The notes under the pieces were generated by a model. The model was not told the origin of the DNA. It did no database searches and was given only the letters and a program-made list of their open reading frames with translations. Shown here in pieces: positions 49,677 to 64,000 of a stretch of 64,000 nt of DNA (positions are counted from its first letter, which is position 1; each line of letters opens with the position of its first letter). The stretch spans positions 1 to 64,000 of IMG/VR virus record IMGVR_UViG_3300021963_000060, one strand, 5' to 3'. The translations under genes and the position numbers were made by a program. Origin of the DNA: a virus.

Positions 49677-49904
49677 TCACCAGTCAGGATATTCCCACAT
49701 TACTTCTTTATTTTTCTTTTTTCTTGAGCTTATTACCCTTTTTATAGAGCAAGATTTGCATTCATATGAATATGAAGATGGTTGATATTTATTTTTTCTT
49801 GTTCGATAAAATCCATCAATAAGATCTTTTACTTCACCACATGTTCTACATGTTCTTTCTGTGAGGTATAAGTGTTCTACCTGAAAATGATCATCGACAT
49901 CCAT
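49677..49904 (-). CDS. Small zinc-finger protein
   Basis: RTCRTCG...YECKSC. Confidence 0.7.
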   Translation of the reverse strand: MDVDDHFQVEHLYLTERTCRTCGEVKDLIDGFYRTRKNKYQPSSYSYECKSCSIKRVISSRKKKNKEVMWEYPDW

Positions 49905-51547
49905 TAGACATAATCCCACATATAAGACATGTTTCCATATTCATCGGAATACCAGCGATCTCCATTATCATCCACAAAACTATCATTTTCTGTACCATTA
50001 ACAATAAATCCAAATGGAGACATATCTTGTTCTATTTGATTCTTTTGTTCTTCATATAGTCTTTTTCTTATGTCTTGATCAGTCAGTTCTTTAAAATAGT
50101 CTTGAGCAACTAACCAAGCATAGATTACTAGACACATAGCAAGGTCATCATTACAACCATCTTCTGCTTCAAATGAATTTCCCTTTTGAATAAAAGTCGT
50201 TAGTTCACTTATGATCTCATAATCTGAGAATAATAATTTACCTTCTTCAATTAATGTTTTTAAATTTAAGCATCCAACTTTCTTAACGGTCTTGGACATC
50301 TTAACTCCAAGTTGAGTTTTCTTTCCAGAAAATCCCTGACCAACAATTTGACCTGCCCTACCTCTCATAGAGCACATAAGAACATTTTGATATTCTAGAT
50401 CATAGTTTAAAATTGAAGCCACCTGATCTCCAATATCATTTACTTCGCATAGTATATAAGCATTATTGTAATTTTTAGCTACTTCGTATATAATTGAAGG
50501 AAAGAGCATAGGTTTTATTTCATTATTCCTATACTTTGCTACAACTTTATGGGGGAATTGAGTTATATCGGTAACTACGAAAGCAGAATAATCATTTCCA
50601 ACTCCCCTAGCAACGTCCACCGTAATTATGTAATCATGCTCTTCATTTCTTTCTTCATAAACATCAAGTCCAGCATTTCTTAAGATTGGGTTATCATAAA
50701 CCATCGTTCTAAGTTTGGATGGTGATATTAGAGTATCAACTGATCCCAAAAATTCACACTCAAACTCTACTTTAAACTGTTGTTCAGAAGTATTAGCTAT
50801 AGTCTGCTCTTTCCACTTAGCATCCCTACCAGGAACTTCACTCCAATGAACATCGGTGGGAATATATTCATTCTTACTTCTTTCAGCATCATGCCATATT
50901 TTATAAAAATGATTCATCCCATGAGGGGTTGAAACAATAATTACCTTAGTGTTTTTACCAGATGAAATAGTAGGATAAACAGAACTGAAAAACTGATCAG
51001 CAATGTGGTTAGGAATAAACGCAAATTCGTCCAGGAATATAATATTATAAGAGCCACCGCGTACCGCAGAGGCGCTAGTAGAAGCAGCAATAATTTTTGA
51101 CCCATTTTCTAACTCCAGAGATGCTTTGTTCCAAGTCATTACACCCTGTTGTAACCACTTGGGTAAATTTTCGTATGCAGTTTGTAAACGATCTAATAAA
51201 TCTTTTGCAGTAGATGCCTTGTTAGCAAGAATAGCAATATTTACATTATCATTAAAAATTGCATAGTGAAGGAGATATGATACAACAATAGTTGACTTAC
51301 CAGACTGTCTAGGTAACTTGCAAATATTGAAACGATGATTATGAAATCTATCGATCATCAACTCTTGGAATTTATATGGTTTAAACGGTTGTAGACCATA
51401 ATCCAAGGTAACGATCTGAATATAATTTTTTGCAAAGTATATTGGATCGTCCTGACATTTAGCAAATTCTAAAACTTGCTCTTCAGTAAATTCTACAACC
51501 GTATTCGCCTTCTTTAATAAGGGATTACCAAGATAATGATCAGCCAT
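49904..51547 (-). CDS. gp17: Terminase large subunit
   Basis: PRQSGKST, FLDEFAF, STPHG, DVARG, DDLAM. Confidence 0.99.
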   Translation of the reverse strand: MADHYLGNPLLKKANTVVEFTEEQVLEFAKCQDDPIYFAKNYIQIVTLDYGLQPFKPYKFQELMIDRFHNHRFNICKLPRQSGKSTIVVSYLLHYAIFNDNVNIAILANKASTAKDLLDRLQTAYENLPKWLQQGVMTWNKASLELENGSKIIAASTSASAVRGGSYNIIFLDEFAFIPNHIADQFFSSVYPTISSGKNTKVIIVSTPHGMNHFYKIWHDAERSKNEYIPTDVHWSEVPGRDAKWKEQTIANTSEQQFKVEFECEFLGSVDTLISPSKLRTMVYDNPILRNAGLDVYEERNEEHDYIITVDVARGVGNDYSAFVVTDITQFPHKVVAKYRNNEIKPMLFPSIIYEVAKNYNNAYILCEVNDIGDQVASILNYDLEYQNVLMCSMRGRAGQIVGQGFSGKKTQLGVKMSKTVKKVGCLNLKTLIEEGKLLFSDYEIISELTTFIQKGNSFEAEDGCNDDLAMCLVIYAWLVAQDYFKELTDQDIRKRLYEEQKNQIEQDMSPFGFIVNGTENDSFVDDNGDRWYSDEYGNMSYMWDYV

Positions 51548-51578: not shown

Positions 51579-53270
51579 TCAGCAATTCCAAGCTCTAAGT
51601 GACTTATTGATTCTGCTATCGGGATCGTTAGCAGTTTTTGCACTTGTTAGTTTTGATTTCATTCCCTTCATTCTGGCGCAAAATGACGCCCTGCGGGGAT
51701 TTCCAACCTTCTTTGAAGGTGCCTTAAGGTCGCTTCCAGGATTCTCACGCTCATAAGATTTGCGTCCTTTTTCATTTAGACCGCCCTCTTTATTTTTTCC
51801 CGATTCACGAGTCCATGCGGCAGATTCTCCTAATTCTCCAAGTGCTTTTGCTTTGCGAATCTTCTTAGGATTCTTAAGTTTACCACCAGGATAGTTTCTT
51901 TCATCATTACCCTCAAAATCAGGATCTACATTAGCACGATGTCTTGCTGCTCTTTCAGGAGATGCTTTATCTGCGTGAATACCCGCTCTACGATTAGGAG
52001 CAATCTTATCTGCTGCTCTCTTTTCCTTCTGCTTCTGACGACTTCTTTGCTTTTTGAAGTCTTTTATCGTCATACCTTCTTCAATTTCAAACTCTTCTCC
52101 CATTGGTCTTATATAACCTTTACTTGGTTTTGGGTTAGCACTGCTTCCTCCCTGAGGACCAACTGCTTGAATGAGAGCCTGTCCAGGTTGAATTTGAGAA
52201 ATTGAATGATGAACTAAGCTGCAACCTGGATATACTTTTTGTAATTCATCAGTGACTTCTTTTCTGGAAGGTAATTTAGTTTGTGGGAAAAACATATTCA
52301 TTGAATAATATTTTCCTCTCCAAAGCACAGTTGCTAGAATTACATTACCATTTTGCGCTTTCATTCTTGTTGTTGCCTCAGATACCATTGTTTTTTTGAT
52401 ATCTTCTGGTTTAATTAGATCAATAAATTCTACAAACTTATTACCAAACATATCTTCAATTTCTAAACTTTCTGACTTAGTTTTTTTAGATTCTACTTTT
52501 TTTAACTTAGTGTAATAATCAGGAACTTCGTCCAAATGTTGTAATGCGGTTATTCTTGCTGCAGTTTTATCTGAAGTGTGCTCACCTTCAACTTTAATAC
52601 CCATCTCTAATTGCTTTTTAATTGCTTCTAGAGATACTCCATGCTTTTTAGCAATTTCTTTTGGTGACTTATATGCTTGTACAGGACCTTTTGGATCCTT
52701 TTCTTCTTTTACAGAACAATCTTTATAACCATGAACTGGACATCTTTTTTCTTTCTTAGATTTATTGCATTCACAACCTTCTTCTTGTAGAATCTTTTCA
52801 ACTAAAGATAGTTCCTCTTTTTTAACAGTAGGCAAACTAACTGCTGCTGCTTTTTTCTTTTGAAGTTCTATTGCCTTTGGTCCCAATTGCTTAGCTGCAT
52901 CTGGTGTTAGTGCTCCTGCACCAGAAGATTTTTTAACAGCAAAACTAATATCTTTTCCTTCAGGTACACAGTTAGGAACAGTTTTTTTACCTTTTTTCTT
53001 CATTCCAATCTGTTTGTATCCTTTCCAACATGCCTCATCAATTTCTTCATCGCTATCCAAATAGTCGGCCGCAGTATCAATATAGTCTGCTGCTTTAGTA
53101 ATTTTCGATTGTACCCATGCAGGTAGTTGGGTATCTCCACTTTTTATTACTTTTTTTAATCTTTTTACAGATTTTTCAATTGTATCCATCTCATTATGAG
53201 CCATATATCCTTCATCATCCTTCCTTTTACCACTAGCAATTTCTTTGTGGTCTTCAGATAATCTTTTCAT
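51579..53270 (-). CDS. Putative internal head polyprotein of small modules
   Basis: EIDE|ACWKGY...PNCVPE, EHT...ALQHLDE.PDYY, LGE|SAAWTR...SFCARM modules; late promoter at 53291-53297. Confidence 0.7.
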   Translation of the reverse strand: MKRLSEDHKEIASGKRKDDEGYMAHNEMDTIEKSVKRLKKVIKSGDTQLPAWVQSKITKAADYIDTAADYLDSDEEIDEACWKGYKQIGMKKKGKKTVPNCVPEGKDISFAVKKSSGAGALTPDAAKQLGPKAIELQKKKAAAVSLPTVKKEELSLVEKILQEEGCECNKSKKEKRCPVHGYKDCSVKEEKDPKGPVQAYKSPKEIAKKHGVSLEAIKKQLEMGIKVEGEHTSDKTAARITALQHLDEVPDYYTKLKKVESKKTKSESLEIEDMFGNKFVEFIDLIKPEDIKKTMVSEATTRMKAQNGNVILATVLWRGKYYSMNMFFPQTKLPSRKEVTDELQKVYPGCSLVHHSISQIQPGQALIQAVGPQGGSSANPKPSKGYIRPMGEEFEIEEGMTIKDFKKQRSRQKQKEKRAADKIAPNRRAGIHADKASPERAARHRANVDPDFEGNDERNYPGGKLKNPKKIRKAKALGELGESAAWTRESGKNKEGGLNEKGRKSYERENPGSDLKAPSKKVGNPRRASFCARMKGMKSKLTSAKTANDPDSRINKSLRAWNC

Positions 53271-53289
53271 TTCTTGGCTATACTTTTTT

Positions 53290-53658
53290 TTATTTATTAT
53301 AAAACTTTATCTCAGAGTACTCTGACTCTGTTTCTTCATTTATTTTTCTCTTTATCTCAGATCTTCTATCATTATTTTTATATACACTTCTAGCTAAAGA
53401 AATAAATTCATCCCCAAAACTATTCTGATCTTCAAGAAGTCTTATTCTATCTTCTATCGCCCATAGTGTTCTATTAATTTGCAACAACTCAGTTACATAT
53501 TTTTCAATATAAACGTTTTCTTTTTTTGCAATTTTTATAAGATCATTTAATTCCTTCATTACATTTTCATTTTTGGTATGTTGATACTTAATAGAAAGAA
53601 TTGATATCTTATCTAATAGTTCACCAATTGATATTGGAATTAATGGGCATGAATTCAT
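53290..53658 (-). CDS. DUF6165-like protein
   Basis: PISIGELLDKISIL...INRTLWAIED...LARSVYKNNDRRSEIK. Confidence 0.8.
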   Translation of the reverse strand: MNSCPLIPISIGELLDKISILSIKYQHTKNENVMKELNDLIKIAKKENVYIEKYVTELLQINRTLWAIEDRIRLLEDQNSFGDEFISLARSVYKNNDRRSEIKRKINEETESEYSEIKFYNK

Positions 53659-55205
53659 AGTGGATTATCTAAATTGAAATTATTTTTGATTAGGTCAATC
53701 AATTCTTTATTTTTAGAAGCAACTCCAAGTCCAAAAGTGTGAGTAAAAGTTACTTTTGGTAAATCTAGTTCTTCAAAAAATCTTTTAACTCCATATTGAT
53801 TACCATTTAGTTCTTCAACACAAGTATCATGGAAAAGTATTACTCCATTTTCTTTTAAAAATGGAACCCATTTCTCATAATCATTTTTTACTGATTCATA
53901 AGCATGATCTCCATCGATATGAAGTATATCAATTTTTTTATCCCAATCTTTAGCAACGTCATCAAATAAACCTTTGATAAAAGTCACGTTATCTTGCATG
54001 AAAAGTTTTTCTCTTTTACTTAAAACATACTCATAAGATCCATGATTACCACCTGTGAATTTATCTCCTTCAAATGTATCAATACCATAAACATGCCCAA
54101 TACGAGGCATTGCAAAACAGAATGTAGAGAATCCCCAATCAACTCCAAGGTCAACAGTAACTTCTGGTTTGATATAAGAAACTAACCACTCTGCAAAATT
54201 TCTATGACCTTTCCAACATGAAGGAATATCTTCCAAGTTAGTTAAGAATAATTTATCAATAGCAGCACTTCTTTCTGGAGAAGAAAGCATATTTGGATTA
54301 AATCCAGTTGTGAAAATTGTAAGGTTTGGATTATTTACTTTTTGCGAAAGTTCAAACATATATCCAAATGCTTGTGATAAATGAGAACCTCCCATATTCA
54401 TAGATTCGCTTAATGCATGAAATGCATAGTTCATTCCACTTTGAAAATCTCCAAGAGAGAACAAGATCTGACTGCATCGAATGAAAGTTGGTATTCTAAA
54501 ACTATTAAAATATGGTTTTGATACGTTCAAAAATTCTTGGCCATATTCCAATGATTTTTCTAAATTTTGTACACTAAAATAGTGATTAAAAATAAACCAA
54601 ATATAGTACCAATTGTTTGGATCTTTTTTATATTCTCTCTCACAAATAGAAAAATAAAAAAGTTCTTTATCAACCGTTTTATTGAGTTTTTTAGTAATTT
54701 TGATAGTCGTATCTACACTTACTTGATTTGGATATTTTTCTGTAGAAACAAAGTTTGGAACTTCGTGTACAGCATTGACCCAAGTGTAATTATTGGTTCT
54801 ATGAAAACGAGGATGAACTTCATTCGATTGGACTGGTTCATTTTTTCCATTATCATCAAATCTCAAATGATTAAAAGTAGTAAATTCTTCCGCAATTACA
54901 CTAAATCCTTCTGGATGAAATTCATCAACATCTTCATTAAAATCCAGTGCGAAAGCCCAATCAGTTTCCACATAAGAAAGTGCCTGATTTCTTGCTACAG
55001 AGAAATCAAACTCTTCCTTTGTTTGTGGATGCTCGTAAACTTTAATATTAGATTCTTTTAATAGTTCAATTGTTCTATCAGTACTTCCAGTATCGACTAC
55101 GACTACATCATCAAACTTTTTTGCATTTTGAAGAAATTTTTCTACATTCTTTTCTTCGTTTTTACAAATAGAATATAATGTTACTTTCATAAGTATGTAC
55201 TCCAA
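53655..55205 (-). CDS. GT2-type glycosyltransferase - helical/TPR-like region - class I SAM methyltransferase fusion
   Basis: ICKNEE, VDTGSTD, DFSVARN, VHE; C-terminal VDLGVDWGFS, HIDGDHAYESV, FHDT. Confidence 0.88.
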   Translation of the reverse strand: MEYILMKVTLYSICKNEEKNVEKFLQNAKKFDDVVVVDTGSTDRTIELLKESNIKVYEHPQTKEEFDFSVARNQALSYVETDWAFALDFNEDVDEFHPEGFSVIAEEFTTFNHLRFDDNGKNEPVQSNEVHPRFHRTNNYTWVNAVHEVPNFVSTEKYPNQVSVDTTIKITKKLNKTVDKELFYFSICEREYKKDPNNWYYIWFIFNHYFSVQNLEKSLEYGQEFLNVSKPYFNSFRIPTFIRCSQILFSLGDFQSGMNYAFHALSESMNMGGSHLSQAFGYMFELSQKVNNPNLTIFTTGFNPNMLSSPERSAAIDKLFLTNLEDIPSCWKGHRNFAEWLVSYIKPEVTVDLGVDWGFSTFCFAMPRIGHVYGIDTFEGDKFTGGNHGSYEYVLSKREKLFMQDNVTFIKGLFDDVAKDWDKKIDILHIDGDHAYESVKNDYEKWVPFLKENGVILFHDTCVEELNGNQYGVKRFFEELDLPKVTFTHTFGLGVASKNKELIDLIKNNFNLDNPL

Positions 55206-55873
55206 TCAATACAAGGTGATAAAAAATCTTTGTGGCAATGTGTAGAATAACCAGGAATGCTTGAGATTAAATTGCGTCCTCTCCTATGTAGTTCTAAAAA
55301 TTTTCCATGGTCCGCTGAAGGCTCGAAACCAGTAGAAAAATGTCTATGAACTTCTTGATCTTCTTTTAATGTTTTGAACTTTACGGCAAAAGTATTAGTA
55401 GTTGATGGTGTGGGCATCCAATGTGAATATTTTGTCCTAAGAACTTTAGTCATGAAGTCTTTATACATCTCCTGATACTTGTCTCCGTGGTCGTACAAGG
55501 TCACATAATGAACTGGAAGACTAAACCCATCAATTAAAACCTTATCCCATTCGGAACGATGTACATAATCATCTTCTAAGAAATAAATGATAGTTTCATC
55601 ATCAAAATCTTGAGAAAGAATATAGTCTAAAGTCTTACAAAAACTAAGACTTTCTTTACCACAGTTGATTGTAATTGAACTCTCATCTTTGAGAAAAGTG
55701 TCCTTCTGCTTCCCATAACACTCATCAAAGATTATCGTATAATTTGTAGTCTTTTGATTTAATGTTTTCTTAAAATTATTAAATACTTTTTCTTTATCCC
55801 ACCAATCTGGACGATTTGCTCCAGATAAATTGACTTTGGATGTATAACAATGTCTTAAAAATACTTCAATCAT
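55187..55873 (-). CDS. Putative GT-A glycosyltransferase
   Basis: IIYFLEDDYVH, YVTLYDHGDKY, STTNTFA. Confidence 0.65.
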   Translation of the reverse strand: MIEVFLRHCYTSKVNLSGANRPDWWDKEKVFNNFKKTLNQKTTNYTIIFDECYGKQKDTFLKDESSITINCGKESLSFCKTLDYILSQDFDDETIIYFLEDDYVHRSEWDKVLIDGFSLPVHYVTLYDHGDKYQEMYKDFMTKVLRTKYSHWMPTPSTTNTFAVKFKTLKEDQEVHRHFSTGFEPSADHGKFLELHRRGRNLISSIPGYSTHCHKDFLSPCIDWSTYL

Positions 55874-56652
55874 ATATTAAATTTATCATAAAGTTTTACA
55901 TTTTCTATACCAATTACTTCTTCTGCTGGAGGAGAAGTTCTTTGAAGTTTTGGACGAATCTGATGCAGATTATTTATTCCCCATGCATAATCCTTATCTT
56001 CAGAACAAGTGTTGAATATATTAGAAAAATCATGAGAATAAGATTCTACTTCTAAAAATTCATAAATTTTTAAAAGTTCTTTTTCTGGATTTTTTGTTAA
56101 ATCGTTATAGTCAACAAGATGAATATTATCTCTATAATTTGTTAATCCATAAACTAAACTTTCATATGGATCCGAAACATAATTTCTCCATAAGCATTCT
56201 AAACGATTATCAGTCGTGATCATTTTTCCTTCCATTCTCAAATGAGCGTCTACAAAATTATCCTGCTCATTATTTTTTTCTATTAGTAAAATATAAGATG
56301 CTAAAACTTCACTAACTCTTCTATTTGTTGCAATAATTTTTGGTTTTTGTTTAAGAAATTTTTCAATAGAAGAAATATTCTTACACCAAGCTCTGTGTTT
56401 ATCAATAACACAGGGTTTTTCTATATGATTATAAAAATTTTCAAGAATTGAATTATAAGTGTTATAAACTATATTTTTTTTATCGTAAGTATATTGTAAA
56501 TCTATTTTAGAAAATCCATCATCAATAAAACAGAGTAAATCTGAAAGTGGAGATGTTGGAGTTGTTTGTAATTTTGGATGCTGAGAGAGAATTGATCCAA
56601 GTAAAGTAGATCCAGATCTTGGAAGACCTGAAAGAAAAAATAATGTTTTCAT
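55870..56652 (-). CDS. Sulfotransferase
   Basis: PAPS-binding loop GLPRSGSTLL, IDKHRAW, R...LASY; TAAATA at 56666-56671. Confidence 0.88.
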   Translation of the reverse strand: MKTLFFLSGLPRSGSTLLGSILSQHPKLQTTPTSPLSDLLCFIDDGFSKIDLQYTYDKKNIVYNTYNSILENFYNHIEKPCVIDKHRAWCKNISSIEKFLKQKPKIIATNRRVSEVLASYILLIEKNNEQDNFVDAHLRMEGKMITTDNRLECLWRNYVSDPYESLVYGLTNYRDNIHLVDYNDLTKNPEKELLKIYEFLEVESYSHDFSNIFNTCSEDKDYAWGINNLHQIRPKLQRTSPPAEEVIGIENVKLYDKFNI

Positions 56653-56668
56653 AATTAATAGTAATTAT

Positions 56669-57856
56669 TTACGGATAGTTATCCTCATAAGTTATAGACA
56701 TAATTTGTTGATTTGAGTGTCCAGCACTGACTCTCTTCCAGTTATTTTTACCAGCAAATGTTGTAACCGGTGTTAAAACATTCACATTAACATCTCTTAC
56801 TCCTAACTGACCTAGTTGATTTCCTCCCCAAACCCACAAAGTTCCATCAGTTTTAATTGCTGCAACATGATCAACACCACAAGCAACTTGTTTCCAATTT
56901 GAATTGGTTCCTACCCTTAGAGGATCTACAGCAACTCCTCCTACTTGATTCAGACCTAATTGGCCATTACCATTATATCCCCATGTCCACAGTGTTCCAT
57001 CAGTTTTAATTGCTGAGGCATGTAAATAACCCATGGAAACTTGCTTCCAATTGTTTCCCCCAGCAGTTGTTGTAACTGGTGTAGAACGATCTCCAGATCC
57101 AGCACCAAATGTTCCTATACCACAAGCATAACTAACACCCCAAGTCCATAAAGATCCATCAGTTTTAATTGCAGCACTTCCGTATGATCCTGCGGTAACT
57201 TGTACCCAATTATTTCCCCCTGCAAATGTTGTTACTGGTGTTGATGCATCAATTGCGTTTATATTATTTCCTAATGCCCCATAAGTGTTCAGTCCCCAAG
57301 CCCACAACGTTCCATCAGTTTTGGTAGCAATTGTGTGCTTGAACCCTGCAGATACACTTTTCCAGTTATTTCCTCCAGTAAAAGTAGTAACAGGAGTAGA
57401 TCTTTGAATTATGGTGTTATCGCCAAGTTGACCAGCATCATTCTGCCCCCAAGTCCATAAAGATCCATCAGTTTTAATTGCCGCTACATGACCTCTCCCA
57501 GAAGAAACTGTTCTCCAGGTTCTTTCTGTACCAACCTGTGATATTTGCAATAGGTTACCAGCTCCAAGATTTAATCCAAGTTGACCAAAAGAATTATTTC
57601 CCCAAACCCATAAAGTTCCATCTGTTTTTATTGCAGCTGAACTTAAAAGTCCTGGAGAAACTTCTTTCCAACTAGATCCTGCTGGTACAAAATCAGGAAC
57701 GCTTCTAAATTCAGAAGTAGACCCAAATCCAAGTTGAGCATGTGCATTCCTTCCTGCTGCCCATAAACTCCCTTCTCTAAACAAATCGGAAGATACTAAA
57801 ACATCATCTAGAGAATATACTACTCCGTTCTCTGTATAATTGTAAAAAGTAGGCAT
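56669..57856 (-). CDS. RCC1-repeat 7-bladed beta-propeller protein (B)
   Basis: Repeats of AIKTDG(T/S)LWxWGxNxxGQLG...W(K/R)xVSxG. Confidence 0.92.
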   Translation of the reverse strand: MPTFYNYTENGVVYSLDDVLVSSDLFREGSLWAAGRNAHAQLGFGSTSEFRSVPDFVPAGSSWKEVSPGLLSSAAIKTDGTLWVWGNNSFGQLGLNLGAGNLLQISQVGTERTWRTVSSGRGHVAAIKTDGSLWTWGQNDAGQLGDNTIIQRSTPVTTFTGGNNWKSVSAGFKHTIATKTDGTLWAWGLNTYGALGNNINAIDASTPVTTFAGGNNWVQVTAGSYGSAAIKTDGSLWTWGVSYACGIGTFGAGSGDRSTPVTTTAGGNNWKQVSMGYLHASAIKTDGTLWTWGYNGNGQLGLNQVGGVAVDPLRVGTNSNWKQVACGVDHVAAIKTDGTLWVWGGNQLGQLGVRDVNVNVLTPVTTFAGKNNWKRVSAGHSNQQIMSITYEDNYP

Positions 57857-58224
57857 TAGAGTATTTCCCAGGAATTATTATTTGAATAAATCACAGGAGT
57901 ATTCATTATACTACTCCAATTTTTAAAATATTTTAATATATCCTTATTTATTTCATCTTGAGTTGAAACCAATTTGAGATATTGTCCGTTCTCATTATTT
58001 TCTACAGAGACGAGAACTCCACATTTATCAGGTCTCATTTCTTCAGATATAAGTTCTTGAGCCCATGCACAGAAATATCCTTCACATACTTTGGGTCTTA
58101 CCTTATGAATACTGCATCCAGATTCGCATAAGAACTTACAGGACTTTCCACCACCAAACTCATATCCATAAGCAGAACCTTGTAACCAAGTACAGCAAGC
58201 AGTACATTCTCCACATTCCCTCAT
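57856..58224 (-). CDS. CxxCxxCC (YkgJ/FliB-like) cysteine-cluster protein
   Basis: CGECTACC...CKFL...CSIHKVRPKVCEGYFC. Confidence 0.8.
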   Translation of the reverse strand: MRECGECTACCTWLQGSAYGYEFGGGKSCKFLCESGCSIHKVRPKVCEGYFCAWAQELISEEMRPDKCGVLVSVENNENGQYLKLVSTQDEINKDILKYFKNWSSIMNTPVIYSNNNSWEIL

Positions 58225-58925
58225 AAGTATTCCACCTCACTAAAGTAATGAGTATAAGGTTCATAATCACTCATACCTTTCTTTAATGGAATGGGATGAT
58301 TATCGGCAATATAATCATCATCAGTATATTCCATAAATGATTTTGCCTTCACATTCTTATTGGTTCCAATCCAAAATTCTCTATCAAAACGATAATCGGT
58401 ATTCAAATAGTTGTGGTCTAATGTTTGTATATATGAAGCATTTGCCCACCAGAAGTTCCCACAGTAGCACCCAAGACCTTCATTACTCGTCATAGTCCCA
58501 TCACCCCATAAGGTTGGTCCTAGAGGTTTGTAGGTCTGTCCTACACAGTCATAATCATTTAAATATTCAATACATTCTTTCCAGCGATCAATCACAAAGT
58601 ATTCCATCATCAATCTCCAAGAATTTGCAACGAGAGTTTCTTTACTAGTACCCTTCATATGAAAATATAAAATCTTATGTTCTGGATTTTCGTATGCAAA
58701 GTTTTTTAATGCTATAAGTGTTTCTGTTTCTTCTTTCCAATTTGTATTGTAAAAAACCCTTGCTTTTTCTGGTACATTGAATAATTCTTTATCACCATTA
58801 ACACCAATATGGATATGATCGGCAGCGTCAACTAATCCAGAACAATATAGTCTATGAATTTGTTGCTGGTAGACAAACGCACTCATTCCAGATTGGAAAG
58901 TATGATAAAAAATTGCTATTTTCAT
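58221..58925 (-). CDS. Putative glycosyltransferase-like protein
   Basis: ETETL, ILYFHMKG, GNFWWANASYI, EFWIG; operon context. Confidence 0.55.
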   Translation of the reverse strand: MKIAIFYHTFQSGMSAFVYQQQIHRLYCSGLVDAADHIHIGVNGDKELFNVPEKARVFYNTNWKEETETLIALKNFAYENPEHKILYFHMKGTSKETLVANSWRLMMEYFVIDRWKECIEYLNDYDCVGQTYKPLGPTLWGDGTMTSNEGLGCYCGNFWWANASYIQTLDHNYLNTDYRFDREFWIGTNKNVKAKSFMEYTDDDYIADNHPIPLKKGMSDYEPYTHYFSEVEYL

Positions 58926-59689
58926 AATGAGAACCTATCTCCATCCATACCTTTAATTAAATCAAATCCAAGAACTGGAACATTTAAAATTTTATCTCTA
59001 TCGATAAAATGATAGAAAGAATGTTCTATATCAATTCCAGCAGTTAATTGAATTGCTCTTTCCATATACATAAAACTTTTTTGAAGAACATTAAAAATAT
59101 CATTAAACAAGAATCTATCAAAAGACCACAGACCAGTTACAATACTTCCTTTACATCCATAAAGAAGTGAGTAAATATTTTCAATATCTTCAAATCTTTC
59201 TTCATAATCATAATACTTCATTACATATTTGTTTGTTAAAAATTTTGTTTTATAGTCATTAATATCAAAATATTCATTTAATTTATATCTACCACTTAAT
59301 TTAAATACTCTATTAACATCACTAAATGTATTATTTTCTTGCATGTAATCTAAAACTAATTCTAAGCATCTACACTCAAGCATAGACTTTACAAATGTAA
59401 ATTTATTAGGATCTCTATGTAGATTTTCGTATAAAGCTTTGATATAAGGATCATCATAGAATTCTAAAAATAAATCAGATTGTTCTATGAATTTATTTTT
59501 ATATTCTTCTTTGATAGGTTTTTCCGAGGCCTCATAGATCAAGATATATGCATCTGGAACTCTATCTTTAATAGATTTTATTGTATCTAATGTTTGTTGA
59601 TATCTCTCTTCTGCATTAAAAGCACTTAAATCATCTTCTTTGAAATGATTAACTGCAGATCCAACTAAAAATAAAAACTTATAATTCAT
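58922..59689 (-). CDS. Hypothetical protein, glycosyltransferase-like
   Basis: ERYQQTLDTIKSI, FKLSGRY, DIEH; operon context. Confidence 0.5.
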   Translation of the reverse strand: MNYKFLFLVGSAVNHFKEDDLSAFNAEERYQQTLDTIKSIKDRVPDAYILIYEASEKPIKEEYKNKFIEQSDLFLEFYDDPYIKALYENLHRDPNKFTFVKSMLECRCLELVLDYMQENNTFSDVNRVFKLSGRYKLNEYFDINDYKTKFLTNKYVMKYYDYEERFEDIENIYSLLYGCKGSIVTGLWSFDRFLFNDIFNVLQKSFMYMERAIQLTAGIDIEHSFYHFIDRDKILNVPVLGFDLIKGMDGDRFSL

Positions 59690-60359
59690 AAAAACAAGAA
59701 GAATGATGTGAAATAATTTTTTGATTATTTAATATATTATTTACTCTGGTTGTCCAGAGATCTGGAATAGAATCCTTAAACTTACTAATCCTAAACCAGT
59801 GATAAGTTGCTGGATATAAAGTTCCTGTTCCGTATATTCCATATCCAGAGAGTTTATATTCTTCAGGACCATCATAACCAATTGGATACATTAATTGATA
59901 AGGCATTCCAATTTGGTCTGCTCTTAAGGTAAGAAGTTGTGCAGTATCTATTTGAACTCCATTTTGCATAAACCAAGCAAAGTCTGAATTACCTAAAGTA
60001 TTCCAAGCATCTTTAGTTACAATTAAACAAGAAGCAGCAGCATAGATATGATTTCTCATTTGTGTATGAGAAATATTTTGTGCATTACCAACAAAAGATT
60101 TATTTTTTACCGCCCAGTCATATGCTCTTTCTATCAATTCTTTATTGTGGGGAAGACAATCAATATCTAAAAAACAAGCAACTTCTTCCTTCTCCATAAC
60201 AGAAGTCATAAATTTCCCATGAGACGTATAAACATCATCATAATCAGTAAAATCTTGATGATGATAGGTAACATCAATACCTACATGATCACAGACTTTT
60301 TTATGATTTTCTATAAGTTGTTCTGGAAGATTGTTTGTATAAAATGTATGAAATTTCAT
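59679..60359 (-). CDS. Putative GT-A glycosyltransferase
   Basis: CFLDIDCLP DxD motif; late D and H residues. Confidence 0.6.
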   Translation of the reverse strand: MKFHTFYTNNLPEQLIENHKKVCDHVGIDVTYHHQDFTDYDDVYTSHGKFMTSVMEKEEVACFLDIDCLPHNKELIERAYDWAVKNKSFVGNAQNISHTQMRNHIYAAASCLIVTKDAWNTLGNSDFAWFMQNGVQIDTAQLLTLRADQIGMPYQLMYPIGYDGPEEYKLSGYGIYGTGTLYPATYHWFRISKFKDSIPDLWTTRVNNILNNQKIISHHSSCFYEL

Positions 60360-60814
60360 GAATAATCGGTATTAAAACTAATAATAATTCTTTCTTCTGT
60401 TTCTTCCTCTGTATAATGAACTAAATCGCTTGAGAAAATAACTAATAATCCAGGATAAGGTTGAATTGAGGTTTCTGGGAAAATGAGTGGAGTTCTTCCA
60501 GAAATATAAAATGCCCCACTTATAATACTTTCTTCATGTCTATGTGCTTTAAGTTTATTTCCTGGTTGTGAAATATTAAACCAACTATTAATAAACTTGA
60601 GTGGTGGAATATTATATTTCTCACAATAGATTATAATATATTCATTGATAATAGTTTTTAATCCTATCAGTTCTGGATACATCAAAACAGGCATTCCATG
60701 ATTATAAGTAGAAGTGCCTCTTGTTACTAATCCATGAGAAGCAGTTTCTATTTGTAAAAGTTTTTTCTTTATAGAATTGAGATTGAGAAAAGATAAATTA
60801 TACTCTTCTATCAT
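60356..60814 (-). CDS. 2OG-Fe(II) oxygenase
   Basis: SWFN...HRH...SGAFY...FSSDLVH...RIIISFN. Confidence 0.85.
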   Translation of the reverse strand: MIEEYNLSFLNLNSIKKKLLQIETASHGLVTRGTSTYNHGMPVLMYPELIGLKTIINEYIIIYCEKYNIPPLKFINSWFNISQPGNKLKAHRHEESIISGAFYISGRTPLIFPETSIQPYPGLLVIFSSDLVHYTEEETEERIIISFNTDYS

Positions 60815-62147
60815 TCATAAACTCCCAAAATTCTTTAGTTGGTTCATCCCAAGTTCTTGGTTTCTTTTGGCGGAATAGATGAACATTATCTCCATACCAC
60901 ATACATTTTCCTGTGGATGATGTCCAAACATAATATTCCATAATGGGTACAAAGACACAGACTTCTTTTCCCAGTGATGCTGCAACATGAGCAACAAAAC
61001 TGCAAGAAGTTACAACTAAATCTAAGTTCTGGATGATGGAAAATGTATCAGCAAACTCTCTATTAGGAACTGATAGTGATTGTTTGATTTCTGGATAATC
61101 ATTCGCATCTTTATTATCACTATGAGTTTGAAGTGAATATAATGAGTATCCTTTATTTCCCAGAACACTCATATAATCTTTTAGTTCTACTGATCGGAAA
61201 GAATTTTGCTCAAATCCAGAACTGGAAGCCCAAAACATTCCAACCTTATATTCAGTATCTTCTTTCATCCATTCCCATTTTTTATCATAATCAGGAAGTG
61301 TTTGAAGATAAGATTCTCTTCCAATATCTTTCAGTTCTAGATTAAGATAATAAGGAAGTGCAAGACCATATACCCAGCAAGCATCTTTTGGAAACTCTGG
61401 TTTATCCCAAATACAAACGGCATCATAACCATTGTATTTAAAGAGTTCCACAAGTTCTTTTCGTGTAGAACTCCAAATTGGTTTCATTCCCAAATCTTTA
61501 AGATGTTTCATAAACCTGATATGAATCACCTCATCACCAGCACCACACTGATTATCGATAATAATCGTTCTTCCTGGAGTGATAGTTCCATCCCACTTCT
61601 CAAAATCAGGATGCTTTTGATTCTTGTATGCTTCTACTTCTCCTGCTTTGAGAAAGTGTTGAAGTCCTGTATGAATATCATCCTTACGGAAATAGTGTCC
61701 TGATAGATTATGATATGCTTTTCTTTCAATCTCTTCTGGTAGATTCTTTTGAATAAGATTGAATAAAAGTTTTTCAGACTTTTCTTTTTGATTCAGTGCA
61801 GAATATGCAAAAGTTTCTTCCAAAAGAAGTTCAGGATCTTGAGGATTTTGTTTTTTCAGTTTTTCAATTTGAGTTATGGATTTCTCTGGATGATTTGACT
61901 GATTATAAGCATTAATCAAATTCATAGAGGTGGTATATTTTTCCTCTTTTGTTTGTGCTAGTTTAAGAGACTTTTCTCCATATTCAATTGCTTTGGAGAA
62001 GTTTTTAAGTTCAAAAAATATCTTTGCTACATCATCATATTGCGAAAATACTTGGGATTGTTTTCCAAAAGCATCAAGAAGTTCAAAAGTTAATTGTTGT
62101 TCTTTAAATGAATATAGTGTCTTTGCAACCAGTTCAAGTGGGTTCAT
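60798..62147 (-). CDS. TPR protein fused to GT-B / GT9 (heptosyltransferase-like) glycosyltransferase
   Basis: N-terminal TPRs; WDG, QCGAGDEVIHIRF, DLVVTSCSFVAHVAASLG, WY...LFRQ; TAAATA at 62170-62175. Confidence 0.85.
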   Translation of the reverse strand: MNPLELVAKTLYSFKEQQLTFELLDAFGKQSQVFSQYDDVAKIFFELKNFSKAIEYGEKSLKLAQTKEEKYTTSMNLINAYNQSNHPEKSITQIEKLKKQNPQDPELLLEETFAYSALNQKEKSEKLLFNLIQKNLPEEIERKAYHNLSGHYFRKDDIHTGLQHFLKAGEVEAYKNQKHPDFEKWDGTITPGRTIIIDNQCGAGDEVIHIRFMKHLKDLGMKPIWSSTRKELVELFKYNGYDAVCIWDKPEFPKDACWVYGLALPYYLNLELKDIGRESYLQTLPDYDKKWEWMKEDTEYKVGMFWASSSGFEQNSFRSVELKDYMSVLGNKGYSLYSLQTHSDNKDANDYPEIKQSLSVPNREFADTFSIIQNLDLVVTSCSFVAHVAASLGKEVCVFVPIMEYYVWTSSTGKCMWYGDNVHLFRQKKPRTWDEPTKEFWEFMNDRRV

Positions 62148-62180
62148 ATTGAATAATTTATTTTGTAGGTATTTAGATAC

Positions 62181-63371
62181 CTACAAAATGTCTGAGGATT
62201 TTATTGCTACTGTATGAGAAGCTCCACAAGCAAGTTGTTTCCAGTTGGTTCCTCCTGCGAATGTAGTGACTGGAATGGATCTATTGGTTTGTGTATTGTC
62301 TCCTAGTTGTCCAATATGATTACGACCCCAAGTCCATAAGGTTCCATCAGTTTTGATTGCTAATGTATGTAGACTTCCTGCACTTACTTGTTTCCAGTTA
62401 GTTCCTCCTGCGAATGTGGTGACTGGAGTGGATCTATCAGTTGTTGTATTGTCTCCTAGTTGTCCACCAATATTATAACCCCAAGTCCATAAGGTTCCAT
62501 CGGTTTTAATTGCTGCTGTATGTTCTTGTCCACAAGCAACTTGTTTCCAGTTAGTTCCTCCTGCGAATGTTGTTACTGGAGTGGATCTATCAGTTGCTGC
62601 ATTGTCTCCTAGTTGTCCACTACTATTACGACCCCAAGTCCATAAGGTTCCATCAGTTTTGATTGCTACTGTATCATTTACTCCAGCAAAAACTTGTTTC
62701 CAGTTAGTTCCTCCTGCGAATGTGGTGACTGGAGTGAATCTTTGGGTTGTTGTATTGTCTCCTACTTGCCCACTAAGATTACGACCCCAAGACCATAAAG
62801 TTCCATCAGTTTTGATTGCTGCTGTATGAATTTGACCACAAGCAACTTGTTTCCAGTTGGTTCCTCCTGCGAATATAGTGACTGGAATGGATCTATTGGT
62901 TGATGTATTGTCTCCTAGTTGTCCATAAGCATTACTCCCCCAAGTCCATAAGGTTCCATCAGTTTTGATTGCTAATGTATGTAGAAAACCTGCACTTACT
63001 TGTTTCCAGTTAGTTCCTCCTGCGAATGTGGTGACTGGAGTGAATCTTTGGGTTGTTGTATTGTCTCCTAGTTGTCCACCAATATTATAACCCCAAGTCC
63101 ATAAGGTTCCATCAGTTTTGATTGCTGAAACGTGATTAGCTCCACAACTAACCTGTTTCCAGTTTGCTCCGCCAGATAATGTTGTGACCGGAGTGGATCT
63201 ATTGATTGTTGTATTCTCTCCTAGTTGTCCAGAAGAATTATTACCCCATACCCAAAGTTCTGGAGTGATTAATTGATTAGAAATATTGGGATAAACTGAA
63301 ATTAAATAATCTTTCGATATAAATTTATCGCCCAAATCTATCCCATCAGATCCTCTGAAATTTATACTCAT
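62181..63371 (-). CDS. RCC1-repeat 7-bladed beta-propeller protein (A)
   Basis: Seven 51-aa repeats; TAAATA at 63403-63408. Confidence 0.94.
62200..63258. repeat. Tandem 153-nt intragenic repeat, 7 units
   Basis: CCCCA (Trp-Gly) anchor at 62326, 62479, 62632, 62785, 62938, 63091 and 63244, an exact 153-nt period. Confidence 0.95.
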
Positions 63372-63421
63372 ATTTTACAGAAAATGTTGGAGATAATAAT
63401 ATTATTTAGAACTAGAATCTA

Positions 63422-63871
63422 TTAATCTTTTGATTCTAATTTTGTAGATTTTAGTAGTTTAGATAATTCTGCAGTAGAACCTACAAAAAGTGCATTTGTA
63501 ACATTTGTTGGCCCTTTACTTTGTTTATTATCATCAATATCCTTAAGTTTTTTCTGAAGATCCATTAACTTATCAGTAGCATCTGCAACATTTTTTATCA
63601 ATTGTCCAGCAACCTCGTAAGCTCTGGGCATATCACTTTCTTGTGCTAACTCTAAAATACCATTTATAGCTTCTTGTCCTTTTTCTATAATAGAATATAA
63701 ATTTCCTCTAGTATATTCATAATCTTTTACTATATCATCTTTTATTGATGATTTATTTTCATTTTGATCCGATGGAATTATTTCTACGGAAGATTCTTTG
63801 ACTTCAACTAATTCAGAAACTTCGGAATTAGTATTAAAAATATCATCCAATTTTTCATACTTTTTAGTCAT
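63422..63871 (-). CDS. gp16: Terminase small subunit
   Basis: DYEYTRGNL, PRAYEVAGQLIK, NALFVGSTAEL. Confidence 0.95.
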   Translation of the reverse strand: MTKKYEKLDDIFNTNSEVSELVEVKESSVEIIPSDQNENKSSIKDDIVKDYEYTRGNLYSIIEKGQEAINGILELAQESDMPRAYEVAGQLIKNVADATDKLMDLQKKLKDIDDNKQSKGPTNVTNALFVGSTAELSKLLKSTKLESKD

Positions 63872-63876
63872 GATAT

Positions 63877-64000
63877 TTAAAATCCTCCACTAAAACCAAA
63901 ATCATCTCCCAGTTTTATCTGTTCGTTATCTTGACTTGTTATTAATTTAACATCAGTTCCAGAAACATGAGTTGATATAATTGTATTATATGAACCTCTC
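63877..64000 (-). CDS. gp15: Tail sheath stabiliser, 3' end only
   Basis: Hand translation ...QIKLGDDFGFSGGF*; DDFGF terminus; position before gp16. Confidence 0.75.
   Translation of the reverse strand, partial: RGSYNTIISTHVSGTDVKLITSQDNEQIKLGDDFGFSGGF

Follow-up and report, generated by a model that had tools for sequence, protein, structure and literature searches.

The gene block and its position

The question raised by this locus is on what a compact set of glycan-type enzymes interleaved with two RCC1 propellers is likely to act, and whether its location beside the terminase genes says anything about that target. The window analyzed comprises 64,000 nucleotides (positions 1 to 64,000 of virus record IMGVR_UViG_3300021963_000060), in which the module is a 10-kb block running from 53290 to 63371. 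A sequence-only reading of this DNA had described 12 ORFs here, and all of them are present on the minus strand at the coordinates given below. Their tight coupling was also borne out: among the 11 internal junctions, 8 are overlaps of 1-19 nt and three are gaps of 50, 33 and 16 nt. Such overlaps imply co-translation. The placement of the block between gp16 and gp17 was accurate at one end only. The gene g16 for the small terminase subunit (63422..63871, minus strand; Pfam DNA_Packaging, 4e-8) adjoins it on the left, outside the module, but on the right a thirteenth gene that is also external to it, p563 (51579..53270, minus strand; DUF5661 and DUF6321 domains, homologous to S-SRM01 gp206), separates it from g17 (49904-51547). 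Contigs of independent sequencing runs span both junctions, that with g16 (63099-64000) and that with p563 (52578-53493 and 53071-54389).

Comparison with Synechococcus phage S-SRM01 yielded a single DNA alignment block covering the module (53330-63314; 80.8% nucleotide identity), which stops at 53330 inside the DUF6165 gene, the last of the block. At the protein level the cassette enzymes are 85-92% identical to those of S-SRM01, the DUF6165 protein 59% and gp17 77%. The module in this phage is one 10-kb block transplanted into the junction between g16 and the gp206-like gene, and the terminase site is a secondary relocation.

Conservation of the module in related phages

Relatives were collected from 17 plus 80 IMG/VR loci, amounting to 58 non-identical viral contigs, most of them from one phage clade, and the gene order of the module is repeated across them. 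None of the 58 has a terminase gene near the module, and tail-fibre or baseplate homologues accompany it in all 28 loci whose upstream sequence extends to 6 kb or more. The S-SRM01 module likewise lies in the tail-fibre/baseplate region, and the gene upstream of it, gp334, encodes a tail fibre bearing a Peptidase_S74 chaperone. The location between terminase genes can hence be dismissed as a feature of the system, and the usual location suggests that the likely targets are fibre-associated proteins rather than the virion in general.

The arrangement also extends to far more divergent genomes. The marine virus AG-345-E08 presents the order two tail-fibre genes, RCC1, x, RCC1, 2OG, x, TPR-GT9, 2OG, u226, RCC1, sulfotransferase and, further on, CxxCxxCC and DUF8361, with identities of 24% for TPR-GT9, 32% for u226, 21% for the sulfotransferase, 39% for the CxxCxxCC protein and 41% for DUF8361. 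BUCT-ZZ01 has a tail fibre, a fibre-assembly chaperone-like gene, RCC1 and a TPR-GT9-like gene. The pair of RCC1 and TPR-GT9 is retained straight after tail-fibre genes in two distant lineages (21-42% identity), so that conserved co-occurrence, a point on which the proposal had beforehand been said to stand or fall, was found both within the 58 contigs and well beyond them. The gene immediately preceding TPR-GT9 is an RCC1 gene in 46 of 47 loci, and the same is true for the sulfotransferase in 45 of 49, with the second RCC1 slot empty in a few loci. These sequence comparisons support a tight and ancient linkage between RCC1 genes and enzymes, the synteny evidence for their coupling being correlative throughout. 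The content of the module nevertheless varies: single enzymes are exchanged for divergent alleles, and inserts in relatives include a hexapeptide acetyltransferase, 2OG plus GT25, MT24 and an RXYLT1-like gene.

RCC1 propellers

Both propellers proposed earlier are confirmed by Pfam and are seven-bladed. RCC1-A (62181..63371, minus strand; 396 aa) matches Pfam RCC1 over 7 repeats (E about 1e-82 to 6e-82) as well as PHROG 7220/4219 (phrog_4219 at 3e-55), and its gene contains a 153-nt tandem unit repeated 6.8 times with an 81% match. It carries a slot-specific N-terminus of about 40 aa that is conserved in 10 orthologues. RCC1-B (56669..57856, minus strand; 395 aa; E about 1e-54 to 2e-54) has its own conserved N-terminus and occupies a hypervariable slot, in which the proteins of relatives range from 345 to 1146 aa and slot orthologues share only 44-55% identity with it. 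When N-termini and propellers were compared across orthologues, the N-termini were not more conserved. On average the RCC1 genes show about 65% identity, with varying length and copy number, against medians of 79-92% for the enzymes, the pattern expected for host-recognition proteins. RCC1 homologues are virion proteins confirmed by mass spectrometry in E. coli phage W70 (phrog_4219; PMC11370258) and in GAP32 (PMC5259590), and the propellers of this phage are likely to be virion-associated accessory fibres or adhesins.

Enzymes and accompanying proteins

The gene following RCC1-A encodes a TPR domain (residues 1-175) joined to a GT-B glycosyltransferase of GT9 fold (186-449; 60798..62147, minus strand). 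By sequence its only GT9 match in Pfam has an E value of 0.12, yet the AlphaFold model (pLDDT 89.7) matches GT9 structures with VIA Z scores of 14-16 (16.0 to 3tov, 14.9 to WaaF and 14.8 to TibC), upholding the proposed identity. The best whole-chain Foldseek matches are XcOGT, SPINDLY and OGT, and the modelled architecture resembles that of the OGT/SPINDLY protein glycosyltransferases, whereas the GT9 fold itself is like TibC but equally like the LPS heptosyltransferases WaaC and WaaF. The 2OG-Fe(II) oxygenase (60356..60814, minus strand; 152 aa) was verified by Pfam 2OG-FeII_Oxy_5 (4e-13), PHROG 81 (2e-19) and TIGR02466 (1e-9). The protein u226 (59679..60359, minus strand) is a glycosyltransferase of GT-A fold, as indicated by its AlphaFold model (pLDDT 91.2) and 219 Foldseek matches at E<=1e-3, all of them GT-A, and its D65-x-D67 is invariant. 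Its VIA list is flat (Z from 10.9, for the GT domain of LH3, to 9.0), which identifies a generic GT-A fold only. Since the oxygenase and u226 are present or absent independently of each other among relatives, they do not form an obligatory hydroxylate-then-glycosylate pair.

The description of three further proteins as GT-like fared less well. The protein u255 (58922..59689, minus strand), with an invariant DIEH motif, belongs to a mainly viral family whose closest atlas clusters are viral and unnamed, WavE being a weak lead only (0.90), and it is swapped for 43-44% alleles in loci L013 and L022. The protein u234 (58221..58925, minus strand) gave no match in local Pfam and PHROGs and is instead a DUF8361-family protein (atlas score 0.98 to clusters that are about 90% viral). 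For u228 (55187..55873, minus strand; 1052 cluster representatives) the basis of the label is confined to an E-D-D motif, in which E100 and D102 are invariant and D101 is conserved in at least 90% of sequences, and to glycan-enzyme fusion partners (GT2, Methyltransf_24/RMNT_CmcI and TOD1_MUCI70; P0383 is a fusion of u228, GT2 and MT24). Its bacterial homologues reside in housekeeping neighbourhoods and not in glycan loci, and we keep it as a candidate, probable GT-A-like transferase. The Cys-rich protein (57856..58224, minus strand; 10 Cys) is CxxCxxCC/YkgJ-like according to PHROG 9155 (4e-18), although the Pfam CxxCxxCC match is weak (E 0.29). It has a 39% homologue in AG-345-E08 and probably binds metal.

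The three remaining assignments were all confirmed. The PAPS-type sulfotransferase (55870..56652, minus strand; 260 aa) matches Sulfotransfer_1 (1e-14), Sulfotransfer_3 (6e-14) and PHROG 27463 (2e-53), and its sequence includes LPRSGST, the 5'-PSB motif, as well as an RxxS motif. The fusion of GT2, helical linker and Methyltransf_24 (53655..55190, minus strand; MT24 1e-22, GT2 2e-9, PHROG 13126 at 2e-34), which probably starts at ATG 55190 and not at TTG 55205, has PDB sequence matches to GmaR (3.9e-11), SunS (1.5e-5) and the methyltransferase 6g7d (3.9e-5). By sequence, the nearest matches of its GT2 domain are the protein glycosyltransferases GmaR and SunS, and its methyltransferase domain belongs to the TylF/CmcI/MeT1 type of sugar O-methyltransferases. 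The DUF6165/DUF4254-like protein (53290..53658, minus strand; 122 aa) has a Pfam match at 5e-12.

Precursor supply and promoter-like motifs

As previously claimed, the cassette contains neither nucleotide-sugar genes nor a flippase or polymerase. No 19-residue window in any of the 12 proteins exceeds a mean hydropathy of 1.55, so that there are no membrane proteins and hence no integral-membrane flippase or polymerase, and a search for the Pfam Epimerase family (PF01370) over the 99.5-kb contig gave no match. An epimerase or dehydratase gene adjoins the module in relatives. It is doubtful that the pathway is self-contained, as had been suggested, because relatives add an epimerase, an acetyltransferase, GT25 and a methyltransferase.

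Between the genes of this contig, TAAATA is enriched 16-fold (p=2e-25), and it is also found upstream of structural genes. The three sites reported in the block (63403, 62170 and 56666) exist, the first two reading CTAAATA. The first (63403..63408, minus strand) precedes the start of RCC1-A by 37 nt. The second precedes the TPR-GT9 gene, is conserved in relatives and is covered, together with the RCC1-A stop codon, by a 13-bp hairpin (62160..62189, minus strand; dG -14.3 kcal/mol, z -5.0, none of 200 shuffles equally stable) that is kept in part among relatives. The third (56666..56671, minus strand) overlaps the stop codon of RCC1-B, with the sulfotransferase gene starting 22 nt further on, and is a weak promoter candidate that is not conserved in relatives, most of which read TAAAAC. 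The late-promoter-like CTAAATA motifs suggest that the block would be expressed late.

What the module may modify

Taken together, these results support the view of the locus as a conserved and coherent unit for glycan/protein tailoring that carries late-promoter-like motifs, but not the virion in general as its likely target, and we regard it as somewhat probable that it is a late, cytoplasmic system modifying RCC1 or other fibre proteins. The proposed protein acceptor, rather than lipid or DNA, would agree with the resemblance of two enzymes to protein glycosyltransferases (GmaR/SunS in one case, OGT/SPINDLY and TibC in the other), a point tempered by the WaaC/WaaF-like GT9 fold. That same fold leads to the main rival, in which the enzymes remodel the surface of the infected host (its LPS, its S-layer glycans or its sulfated exopolysaccharide), for instance to achieve superinfection exclusion or prevent adsorption of progeny to debris, and the RCC1 genes are separate, interleaved fibre genes. 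Cyanobacteria make sulfated EPS, and LPS-type families occur here as the WavE lead for u255 and as the GT25 ('LPS biosynthesis') inserted in relatives and present in AG-345-E08. In the literature, moreover, glycosyltransferase clusters of cyanomyophages are mainly interpreted as serving host cell-wall modification (PMC12801897). This rival nonetheless seems unlikely: having no membrane proteins, the block offers it no integral-membrane flippase, polymerase, exporter or initiating phosphoglycosyltransferase, the nearest matches of the GT2 domain are enzymes that glycosylate proteins or peptides, and late-type motifs ill suit envelope remodelling, which needs time. The interleaving of RCC1 genes and enzymes after tail-fibre genes, kept at 21-42% identity, is also hard to reconcile with unrelated gene sets. 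It equally disfavours an accidental pile-up of RCC1 fibre and auxiliary glycan genes in a hyperplastic island, which we judge improbable given that gene order persists across the 58 contigs and two deeply divergent lineages, that overlaps of 1-19 nt imply co-translation and that the entire block moved as a single unit in this phage, even if insertions, allele swaps, loci devoid of the slot-B RCC1 and the independent comings and goings of 2OG and u226 speak for mere linkage.

Other chemistries were given still less weight. Sulfation or methylation of virion-protein residues with no glycan (tyrosine sulfation as by TPST or RaxST, with the glycosyltransferases serving otherwise) could account for the protein-tyrosine sulfotransferases among the only PDB sequence matches of the sulfotransferase, and Sulfotransfer_3 is the Pfam family of TPST. 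However, those matches span just 30 residues of the PAPS cofactor loop (E 0.04-0.3), the methyltransferase domain is of sugar type and at least three glycosyltransferases are predicted to be co-transcribed, making this option quite improbable. Hypermodification of phage DNA, in which modified bases are glycosylated to evade restriction, could draw on the 2OG oxygenase and on the frequent action of phage glycosyltransferases on DNA, cyanophage S-SCSM2R being one proposed case (PMC12801897), but the block has no base-hydroxymethylating enzyme, its oxygenase is of the Oxy_5 family and not of TET/JBP type, and TPR domains, a sulfotransferase, sugar-type O-methyltransferases and a tail-fibre context fit it so poorly that we consider it highly implausible.

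Under the preferred reading, modification of RCC1 or other fibre proteins, transcription would start late from the CTAAATA motifs, and the TPR-GT9, the GT-A glycosyltransferase, the GmaR/SunS-like GT2 with its sugar-type O-methyltransferase, the PAPS sulfotransferase and the 2OG-Fe(II) oxygenase, accompanied by four further module proteins with no assigned activity, would work in the cytoplasm of the host, with the co-encoded RCC1 and/or neighbouring fibre proteins as substrates. TPR and helical domains may recruit the protein substrate, on which a short glycan would be built, methylated and sulfated with nucleotide sugars, SAM and PAPS supplied by the host. The propellers so modified would then enter, or attach to, the tail-fibre apparatus. 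The module is a mobile, conserved accessory unit that T4-like cyanophages carry in their tail-fibre region, and its location beside tail-fibre genes in related phages makes phage fibre proteins the most likely target of the predicted decoration.

Organization and genomic position of the cassette

The 64-kb window is the first part of a 99.5-kb IMG/VR contig from a T4-like cyanomyophage, with a CheckV completeness of 46%, and its region 53290-63371 is filled by 12 open reading frames, all on the minus strand, running from the propeller protein RCC1-A to a DUF6165 protein. Neighbouring genes overlap by 1-19 nt at eight of the 11 internal junctions, the only gaps being of 50, 33 and 16 nt ahead of RCC1-A, the TPR protein and the sulfotransferase, respectively. 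The terminase subunit gene g16 (63422-63871) is the left neighbour, and to the right lies p563 (51579-53270), a 563-aa DUF5661/DUF6321 protein homologous to gp206 of Synechococcus phage S-SRM01, followed by the second terminase subunit gene, g17 (49904-51547). The sequence-only reading had counted 12 genes between the terminase subunits; the cassette indeed has 12 genes, but because p563 sits between it and g17 the two terminase genes are parted by 13. Contigs of other public runs span both junctions of the cassette (52578-53493, 53071-54389 and 63099-64000) with 0-1 differences, which rules out an assembly chimera as the source of this arrangement. The p563 gene is modular and variable too; between g16 and g17 of the related contig G003 (L028:1234-1479) the sole match was to its conserved C-terminal ~80 aa (DUF6321).

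Positions 53330-63314 align with gp337-gp348 of S-SRM01 (NC_070963, Serangoonvirus) as one collinear block of 80.8% nucleotide identity, with the same 12 genes in the same order. The enzymes share 85-92% amino acid identity with those of S-SRM01, except the DUF6165 protein (59%), and gp17 shares only 77%. The surroundings of the block differ between the two phages. In S-SRM01 it comes after gp334 (a tail fibre with a Peptidase_S74 chaperone), the RCC1 gene gp335 and the DUF4376 gene gp336, it has a nucleotide-sugar epimerase next after it, and it lies amid baseplate-wedge genes and not near the terminase. In the present phage it lacks these neighbours and stands between g16 and the gp206-like gene. 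In the g16-g17 interval of S-SRM01 the p563 homologue immediately follows g16, and therefore the block is inserted in the present phage exactly at the junction of g16 and the gp206-like gene.

Searches of IMG/VR retrieved 17 loci with the sulfotransferase as query and 80 loci, 58 of them non-identical, with the alignment of the TPR-GT9 protein. Gene order is common to all loci: RCC1, DUF4376, RCC1, TPR-GT9, then (where present) the 2OG oxygenase and u226, followed by u255, u234, a Cys-rich protein, RCC1, sulfotransferase, u228, the GT2-methyltransferase fusion (GT2-MT) and DUF6165. An RCC1 gene stands immediately ahead of the TPR-GT9 gene in 46 of 47 loci and immediately ahead of the sulfotransferase gene in 45 of 49. 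Homologues of the S-SRM01 tail-fibre and baseplate genes gp330-334 occur in all 28 loci that have at least 6 kb of upstream sequence, and a terminase, sheath or p563 homologue was found within 10 kb of the module in none of the 58. The position between the terminase genes, which the sequence-only reading had stressed, is a derived relocation into an insertion hot spot and carries no information on function. The g15-g18 region of cyanomyophages is hyperplastic and a hot spot for insertions.

The association of RCC1 proteins with these enzymes is kept in two distant lineages. In the marine virus AG-345-E08 two tail-fibre genes (PHROG 529 at 2e-62 and PHROG 8745 at 1e-18) are followed by RCC1, another gene, RCC1, 2OG, another gene, TPR-GT9 (24% identity), 2OG, a u226-like gene (32%), RCC1, sulfotransferase (21%), GT25, two 2OG genes, another gene, DUF6445, the Cys-rich protein (39%), DUF8361 (41%), 2OG and a GDP-mannose-dehydratase-like gene. 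The order in Synechococcus phage BUCT-ZZ01 is tail fibre, fibre-assembly chaperone-like gene, RCC1 protein (700 aa, L030:6131-8233, annotated as 'BNR' repeat, 42% identity to RCC1-A) and TPR-GT9-like protein. This last protein has a methyltransferase-like C-terminal part.

RCC1 propellers and variation of the module

Pfam firmly identifies two RCC1 propellers in the cassette, with seven repeats matched in RCC1-A and, in RCC1-B, six above the cut-off and one at 21.2 bits, that is, the seven repeats of a seven-bladed RCC1 beta-propeller in each. RCC1-A matches phrog_4219 with an E value of 3e-55. A slot-specific peptide of 33-43 aa forms the N-terminus of the RCC1 proteins. Its identities of 70% and 67%, against 67% and 64% in the propeller, led us to reject a scheme in which a conserved N-terminal anchor carries a variable propeller, both parts being about equally conserved. 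In the relatives, one or two RCC1 genes occupy the slot ahead of the sulfotransferase, their products ranging from 345 to 1146 aa.

Six of the seven blade loops of RCC1-A (62181-63371) read G-D/E-N-T-(T/S)-x-x-R-(S/F)-(T/I)-P-V-T-T, giving, as seen by eye, repeated N-x-S/T and Thr-rich sites that are absent in RCC1-B and that are possible candidates for acceptor sites. Over the RCC1-A repeats (62226-63127) contig depth, when summed, was about 10-fold above that of adjoining genes in each of the four metagenome runs, and different repeat units were joined in many contigs. RCC1 repeat DNA is either abundant and recombinogenic in these communities or else mis-assembled.

In the set of loci found by the sulfotransferase search, with 10-15 sequences for each gene, median pairwise identity is 85-92% for most enzymes, 79% for u255 and the Cys-rich protein and 63% for DUF6165, and the RCC1 proteins have a mean identity of about 65%. 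Alleles of 43-52% identity replace single genes, namely u255 in L013 and L022, u234 in L020 and the 2OG gene in L011, and further tailoring genes (a hexapeptide acetyltransferase, 2OG with GT25, Methyltransf_24 and an RXYLT1_C-like gene) are inserted in relatives at fixed points (L013:8874-10153, L014:10780-12071, L011:10780-11298, L024:664-1347 and L023:13004-13795). As far as the sequences tell, the enzyme set behaves as a glycan locus. Two loci, L010 and L020, encode extra proteins without known identity, of 291 and 223 aa respectively.

Enzymes of the cassette

The protein encoded at 60798..62147 (TPRx) had been called TPR-GT9 in the sequence-only reading, and although its sequence does not reach the gathering score of the GT9 family PF01075 (12.1 bits where 22 are required, E = 0.12), a structure model bore out a GT9-type GT-B fold. 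PF01075 is carried by none of the 120 listed TPRx homologues; profile and sequence searches of PDB sequences with the TPRx alignment, u226 and u228 gave TPR matches or noise only, and two homologue searches, one of them with TPRx, returned only close, unannotated relatives. The AlphaFold model, built with 36 homologues (pLDDT 89.7), predicts a TPR superhelix at residues 1-175 (helices within 3-173) and a two-lobed GT-B domain at 186-449 that superimposes on GT9 structures (VIA: 3tov, Z = 16.0; WaaF, 14.9; TibC, 14.8; WaaC, 14.3), the alignment with 3tov covering 246 aa at an rmsd of 3.3. In this model TPRx has a GT9-type fold in common with the adhesin heptosyltransferase TibC (TibC/AAH), with the LPS enzymes WaaC and WaaF equally close. 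An N-terminal TPR superhelix followed by a GT-B domain is predicted in TPRx as in the GT41 proteins OGT and SPINDLY, and XcOGT, SPINDLY and OGT headed the whole-chain Foldseek list with TM-scores of only 0.24-0.37; at domain level the GT9 structures come first, and the catalytic domain is probably GT9-like rather than of the GT41 type of OGT and SPINDLY.

The GT2-Methyltransf_24 fusion is a firm Pfam assignment, as are the 2OG-FeII_Oxy_5 oxygenase and the DUF6165 protein. The best solved relative of the GT2 domain in phmmer is GmaR (3.9e-11), followed by SunS (1.5e-5), and the domain is homologous to these GmaR/SunS-type GT2 glycosyltransferases; the match of GT2-MT to the NCBIfam SunS model (1e-7) is far under the equivalog cut-off. 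GmaR is the flagellin O-GlcNAc transferase of Listeria, and SunS is a peptide S-glycosyltransferase. The methyltransferase domain scores 81.5 bits with PF13578 (cut-off 26.3) and matches PDB entry 6g7d at 3.9e-5, a profile consistent with a sugar O-methyltransferase of the Methyltransf_24/TylF/CmcI type. GT2-MT probably starts at the ATG at 55190 rather than at the listed TTG at 55205; its orthologues align from this ATG, and an ATGA overlap with u228 results. The sulfotransferase scores 54.9 bits with Sulfotransfer_1 (cut-off 22) and 53.3 bits with Sulfotransfer_3 (cut-off 27) and contains both the 5'-PSB motif for PAPS (LPRSGST) and a 3'-PB-type motif (RRVSEVLAS), as predicted for a PAPS-dependent enzyme.

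The AlphaFold model of u226 (59679-60359; pLDDT 91.2) has a GT-A glycosyltransferase fold with an invariant DxD, and the GT-A fold alone is established by this model. Its structural matches form a flat list, with the LH3 GT domain first at Z = 10.9 and rank 50 still at 9.0, and comparison with the GT-A domain of PBCV-1 A64R gives 9.9. An obligatory pair of 2OG oxygenase and GT-A protein, modelled on collagen LH3, was discarded: many relatives have 2OG without u226 or the reverse, the presence of the two varying independently, and the LH3 match is a tie within the flat list. The GT-like label given to four proteins from sequence alone was upheld by the fold model for u226 but was not borne out for u255, u234 and u228. 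Alignment by hhalign of u226, u228, u255 and u234 with the GT2 domain, and of u228 with u226, gave no signal. Of these, u234 belongs to DUF8361, u255 to an unnamed, mainly viral family and u228 to a family of 1052 cluster representatives in which E100 and D102 are invariant and D101 is kept in at least 90% of sequences. Relatives of u228 are fused to GT2, Methyltransf_24/RMNT_CmcI and TOD1_MUCI70 domains, and the single protein P0383 joins u228, GT2 and MT24, the content of two adjacent cassette genes.

Homologues of u228 with 41-48% identity (L112-L191) are single-copy in many Chlamydiota and Verrucomicrobiota MAGs, with fabF, NUDIX, another gene and bioY as neighbours, and one in a Prochlorococcus SAG lies among guaA, other genes and PBP. 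No other cassette gene was found near the bacterial homologues (L112-L191), and these lone genes amid housekeeping neighbourhoods were uninformative as a clue to the role of u228.

With a maximum 19-residue hydropathy of 1.55, all 12 cassette proteins are predicted to be free of membrane segments, and by Pfam and hydropathy the cassette lacks the initiating phosphoglycosyltransferase, flippase, polymerase and exporter families of an Und-P pathway (Wzx/Wzy or ABC).

Late-type motifs and a hairpin

On this contig coding-strand TAAATA occurs at 8.8 per kb in intergenic against 0.55 per kb in coding sequence, a 16-fold difference (p = 2e-25). No other hexamer of equal composition ranks above it, and in most structural genes that have the motif it lies 15-47 nt upstream. 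This enrichment ahead of late and structural genes is consistent with a T4-type late promoter (TATAAATA). Among the public runs listed for the cassette sequence, none was of RNA. Three TAAATA promoters had been proposed for the cassette. The sites ahead of RCC1-A and of the TPR gene have the form CTAAATA, and the latter is conserved in most relatives; the third promoter, ahead of the sulfotransferase, is doubtful because most relatives read TAAAAC there. A perfect 13-bp hairpin on the minus strand at 62160-62189 (dG -14.3, z -5.0) spans the stop codon of RCC1-A, encloses the CTAAATA at 62170, has no U-tract and is partly kept in L016, L019 and L020. The hairpin may tune the amount of propeller relative to enzyme mRNA, by attenuating or stabilising the RCC1-A transcript.

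The small genes at 94-98 kb have sigma-70-like TATACT boxes in place of TAAATA. Beyond the window, at 94000-98600 of the contig, every small ORF of a run has a near-identical element ahead of it (…CTGATCTGCTATACTG…TCAGTTCAA…), which looks like a repeated sigma-70-type early promoter or leader, unlike the TAAATA of the structural genes.

Possible targets of the module

The most fitting reading of the module is that of a tail-fibre accessory, composed of variable RCC1 propellers and conserved soluble tailoring enzymes. As to what these enzymes do, we incline with modest confidence to cytoplasmic post-translational modification of RCC1 proteins, fibre proteins or both. Glycosylation would take place in the cytoplasm, the glycan would be O-methylated and sulfated, and hydroxylation may be part of the modification. 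We favour this because RCC1 homologues are virion proteins confirmed by mass spectrometry (phrog_4219 of W70, and GAP32), because two enzymes with TPR or helical domains resemble protein glycosyltransferases, because the cassette has no lipid-carrier machinery and because the motifs are of late type. The main rival, in which the enzymes remodel the host envelope, draws on the GT9 fold, on the presence of GT25 in relatives and on how glycosyltransferase clusters of cyanophages have been interpreted in print (PMC12801897); if the envelope were the target, the tight linkage to RCC1 would itself require explanation, and we regard this rival as unlikely. Linkage alone, without function, seems to us improbable and direct sulfation of protein more improbable still, and modification of DNA is hardly to be expected.

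Virion glycosylation by virus-encoded enzymes is already known in mycobacteriophages, chloroviruses and mimiviruses. For the virion O-glycosylation of mycobacteriophages, glycosyltransferases beside structural genes have been described and a cytoplasmic reaction proposed (Freeman et al. 2023, Cell Host Microbe, as cited in PMC12801897). Adjacency of phage glycosyltransferases to structural genes is common to these phages and the present module, but their modification has been shown experimentally, whereas that by the module is a prediction. The mycobacteriophage systems consist of one to a few glycosyltransferases by the capsid and tail-tube genes, and they are not known to include RCC1 propellers, a sulfotransferase, a 2OG oxygenase or a TPR-GT9 protein. 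Virus-encoded, host-independent glycan synthesis with a multidomain GT-GT-methyltransferase is found in chlorovirus PBCV-1 (A064R) and in giant-virus fibrils (PMC9614988, PMC7826918), a layout mirrored by P0383 and, in the cassette, by the neighbouring genes u228 and GT2-MT; those viruses, however, infect eukaryotes, modify the major capsid protein or fibrils with no sulfation known, and share with the cassette no homology detectable in sequence beyond fold. Mass spectrometry of purified virions revealed the RCC1-like proteins W70_237-239 of E. coli phage W70 (phrog_4219; PMC11370258) and GAP_001 of GAP32 (PMC5259590). Like the cassette proteins, these are propellers of about 40 kDa in paralogue sets, but they belong to unrelated phage groups with no adjoining modification enzymes reported. 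The block is not mentioned in the S-SRM01 paper, and our full-text search of the literature turned up no account of a phage module with RCC1, sulfotransferase and glycosyltransferase genes. What would be new here is its occurrence in aquatic T4-like phages, the propeller as substrate and sulfation.

Large cyanomyophages carry many glycosyltransferase or 'LPS' genes, the purpose of which has been guessed at for some 20 years, usually as modification of the host surface. The module puts this question in a concrete and testable form, being widespread (58 or more different viral contigs, with TPR-GT9 homologues numbering over 250), ordered, physically tied to variable RCC1 propellers and tail-fibre genes, and present in the cultured phage S-SRM01, for which a host, Synechococcus sp. 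KCZYC6, is available. If the fibre apparatus is the target, virus-encoded virion glycosylation would reach the aquatic T4-like phages, sulfation would be added to the post-translational modifications of phages, and host-range evolution would be tied to the swapping of glycan enzymes. A more specific version, which we put forward only tentatively, is that cyanomyophages of this group furnish their own RCC1 propeller fibres with an O-glycan that is methylated and sulfated and that may be attached to hydroxylated residues. This would be the first sulfated glycoprotein of a phage particle. Should this be true, diversifying propellers and swappable enzymes would form a combinatorial layer of host recognition or shielding on the tail-fibre apparatus, and large cyanophages would use many of their 'LPS/cell-wall' glycosyltransferase clusters to decorate the virion and not to modify the host surface.
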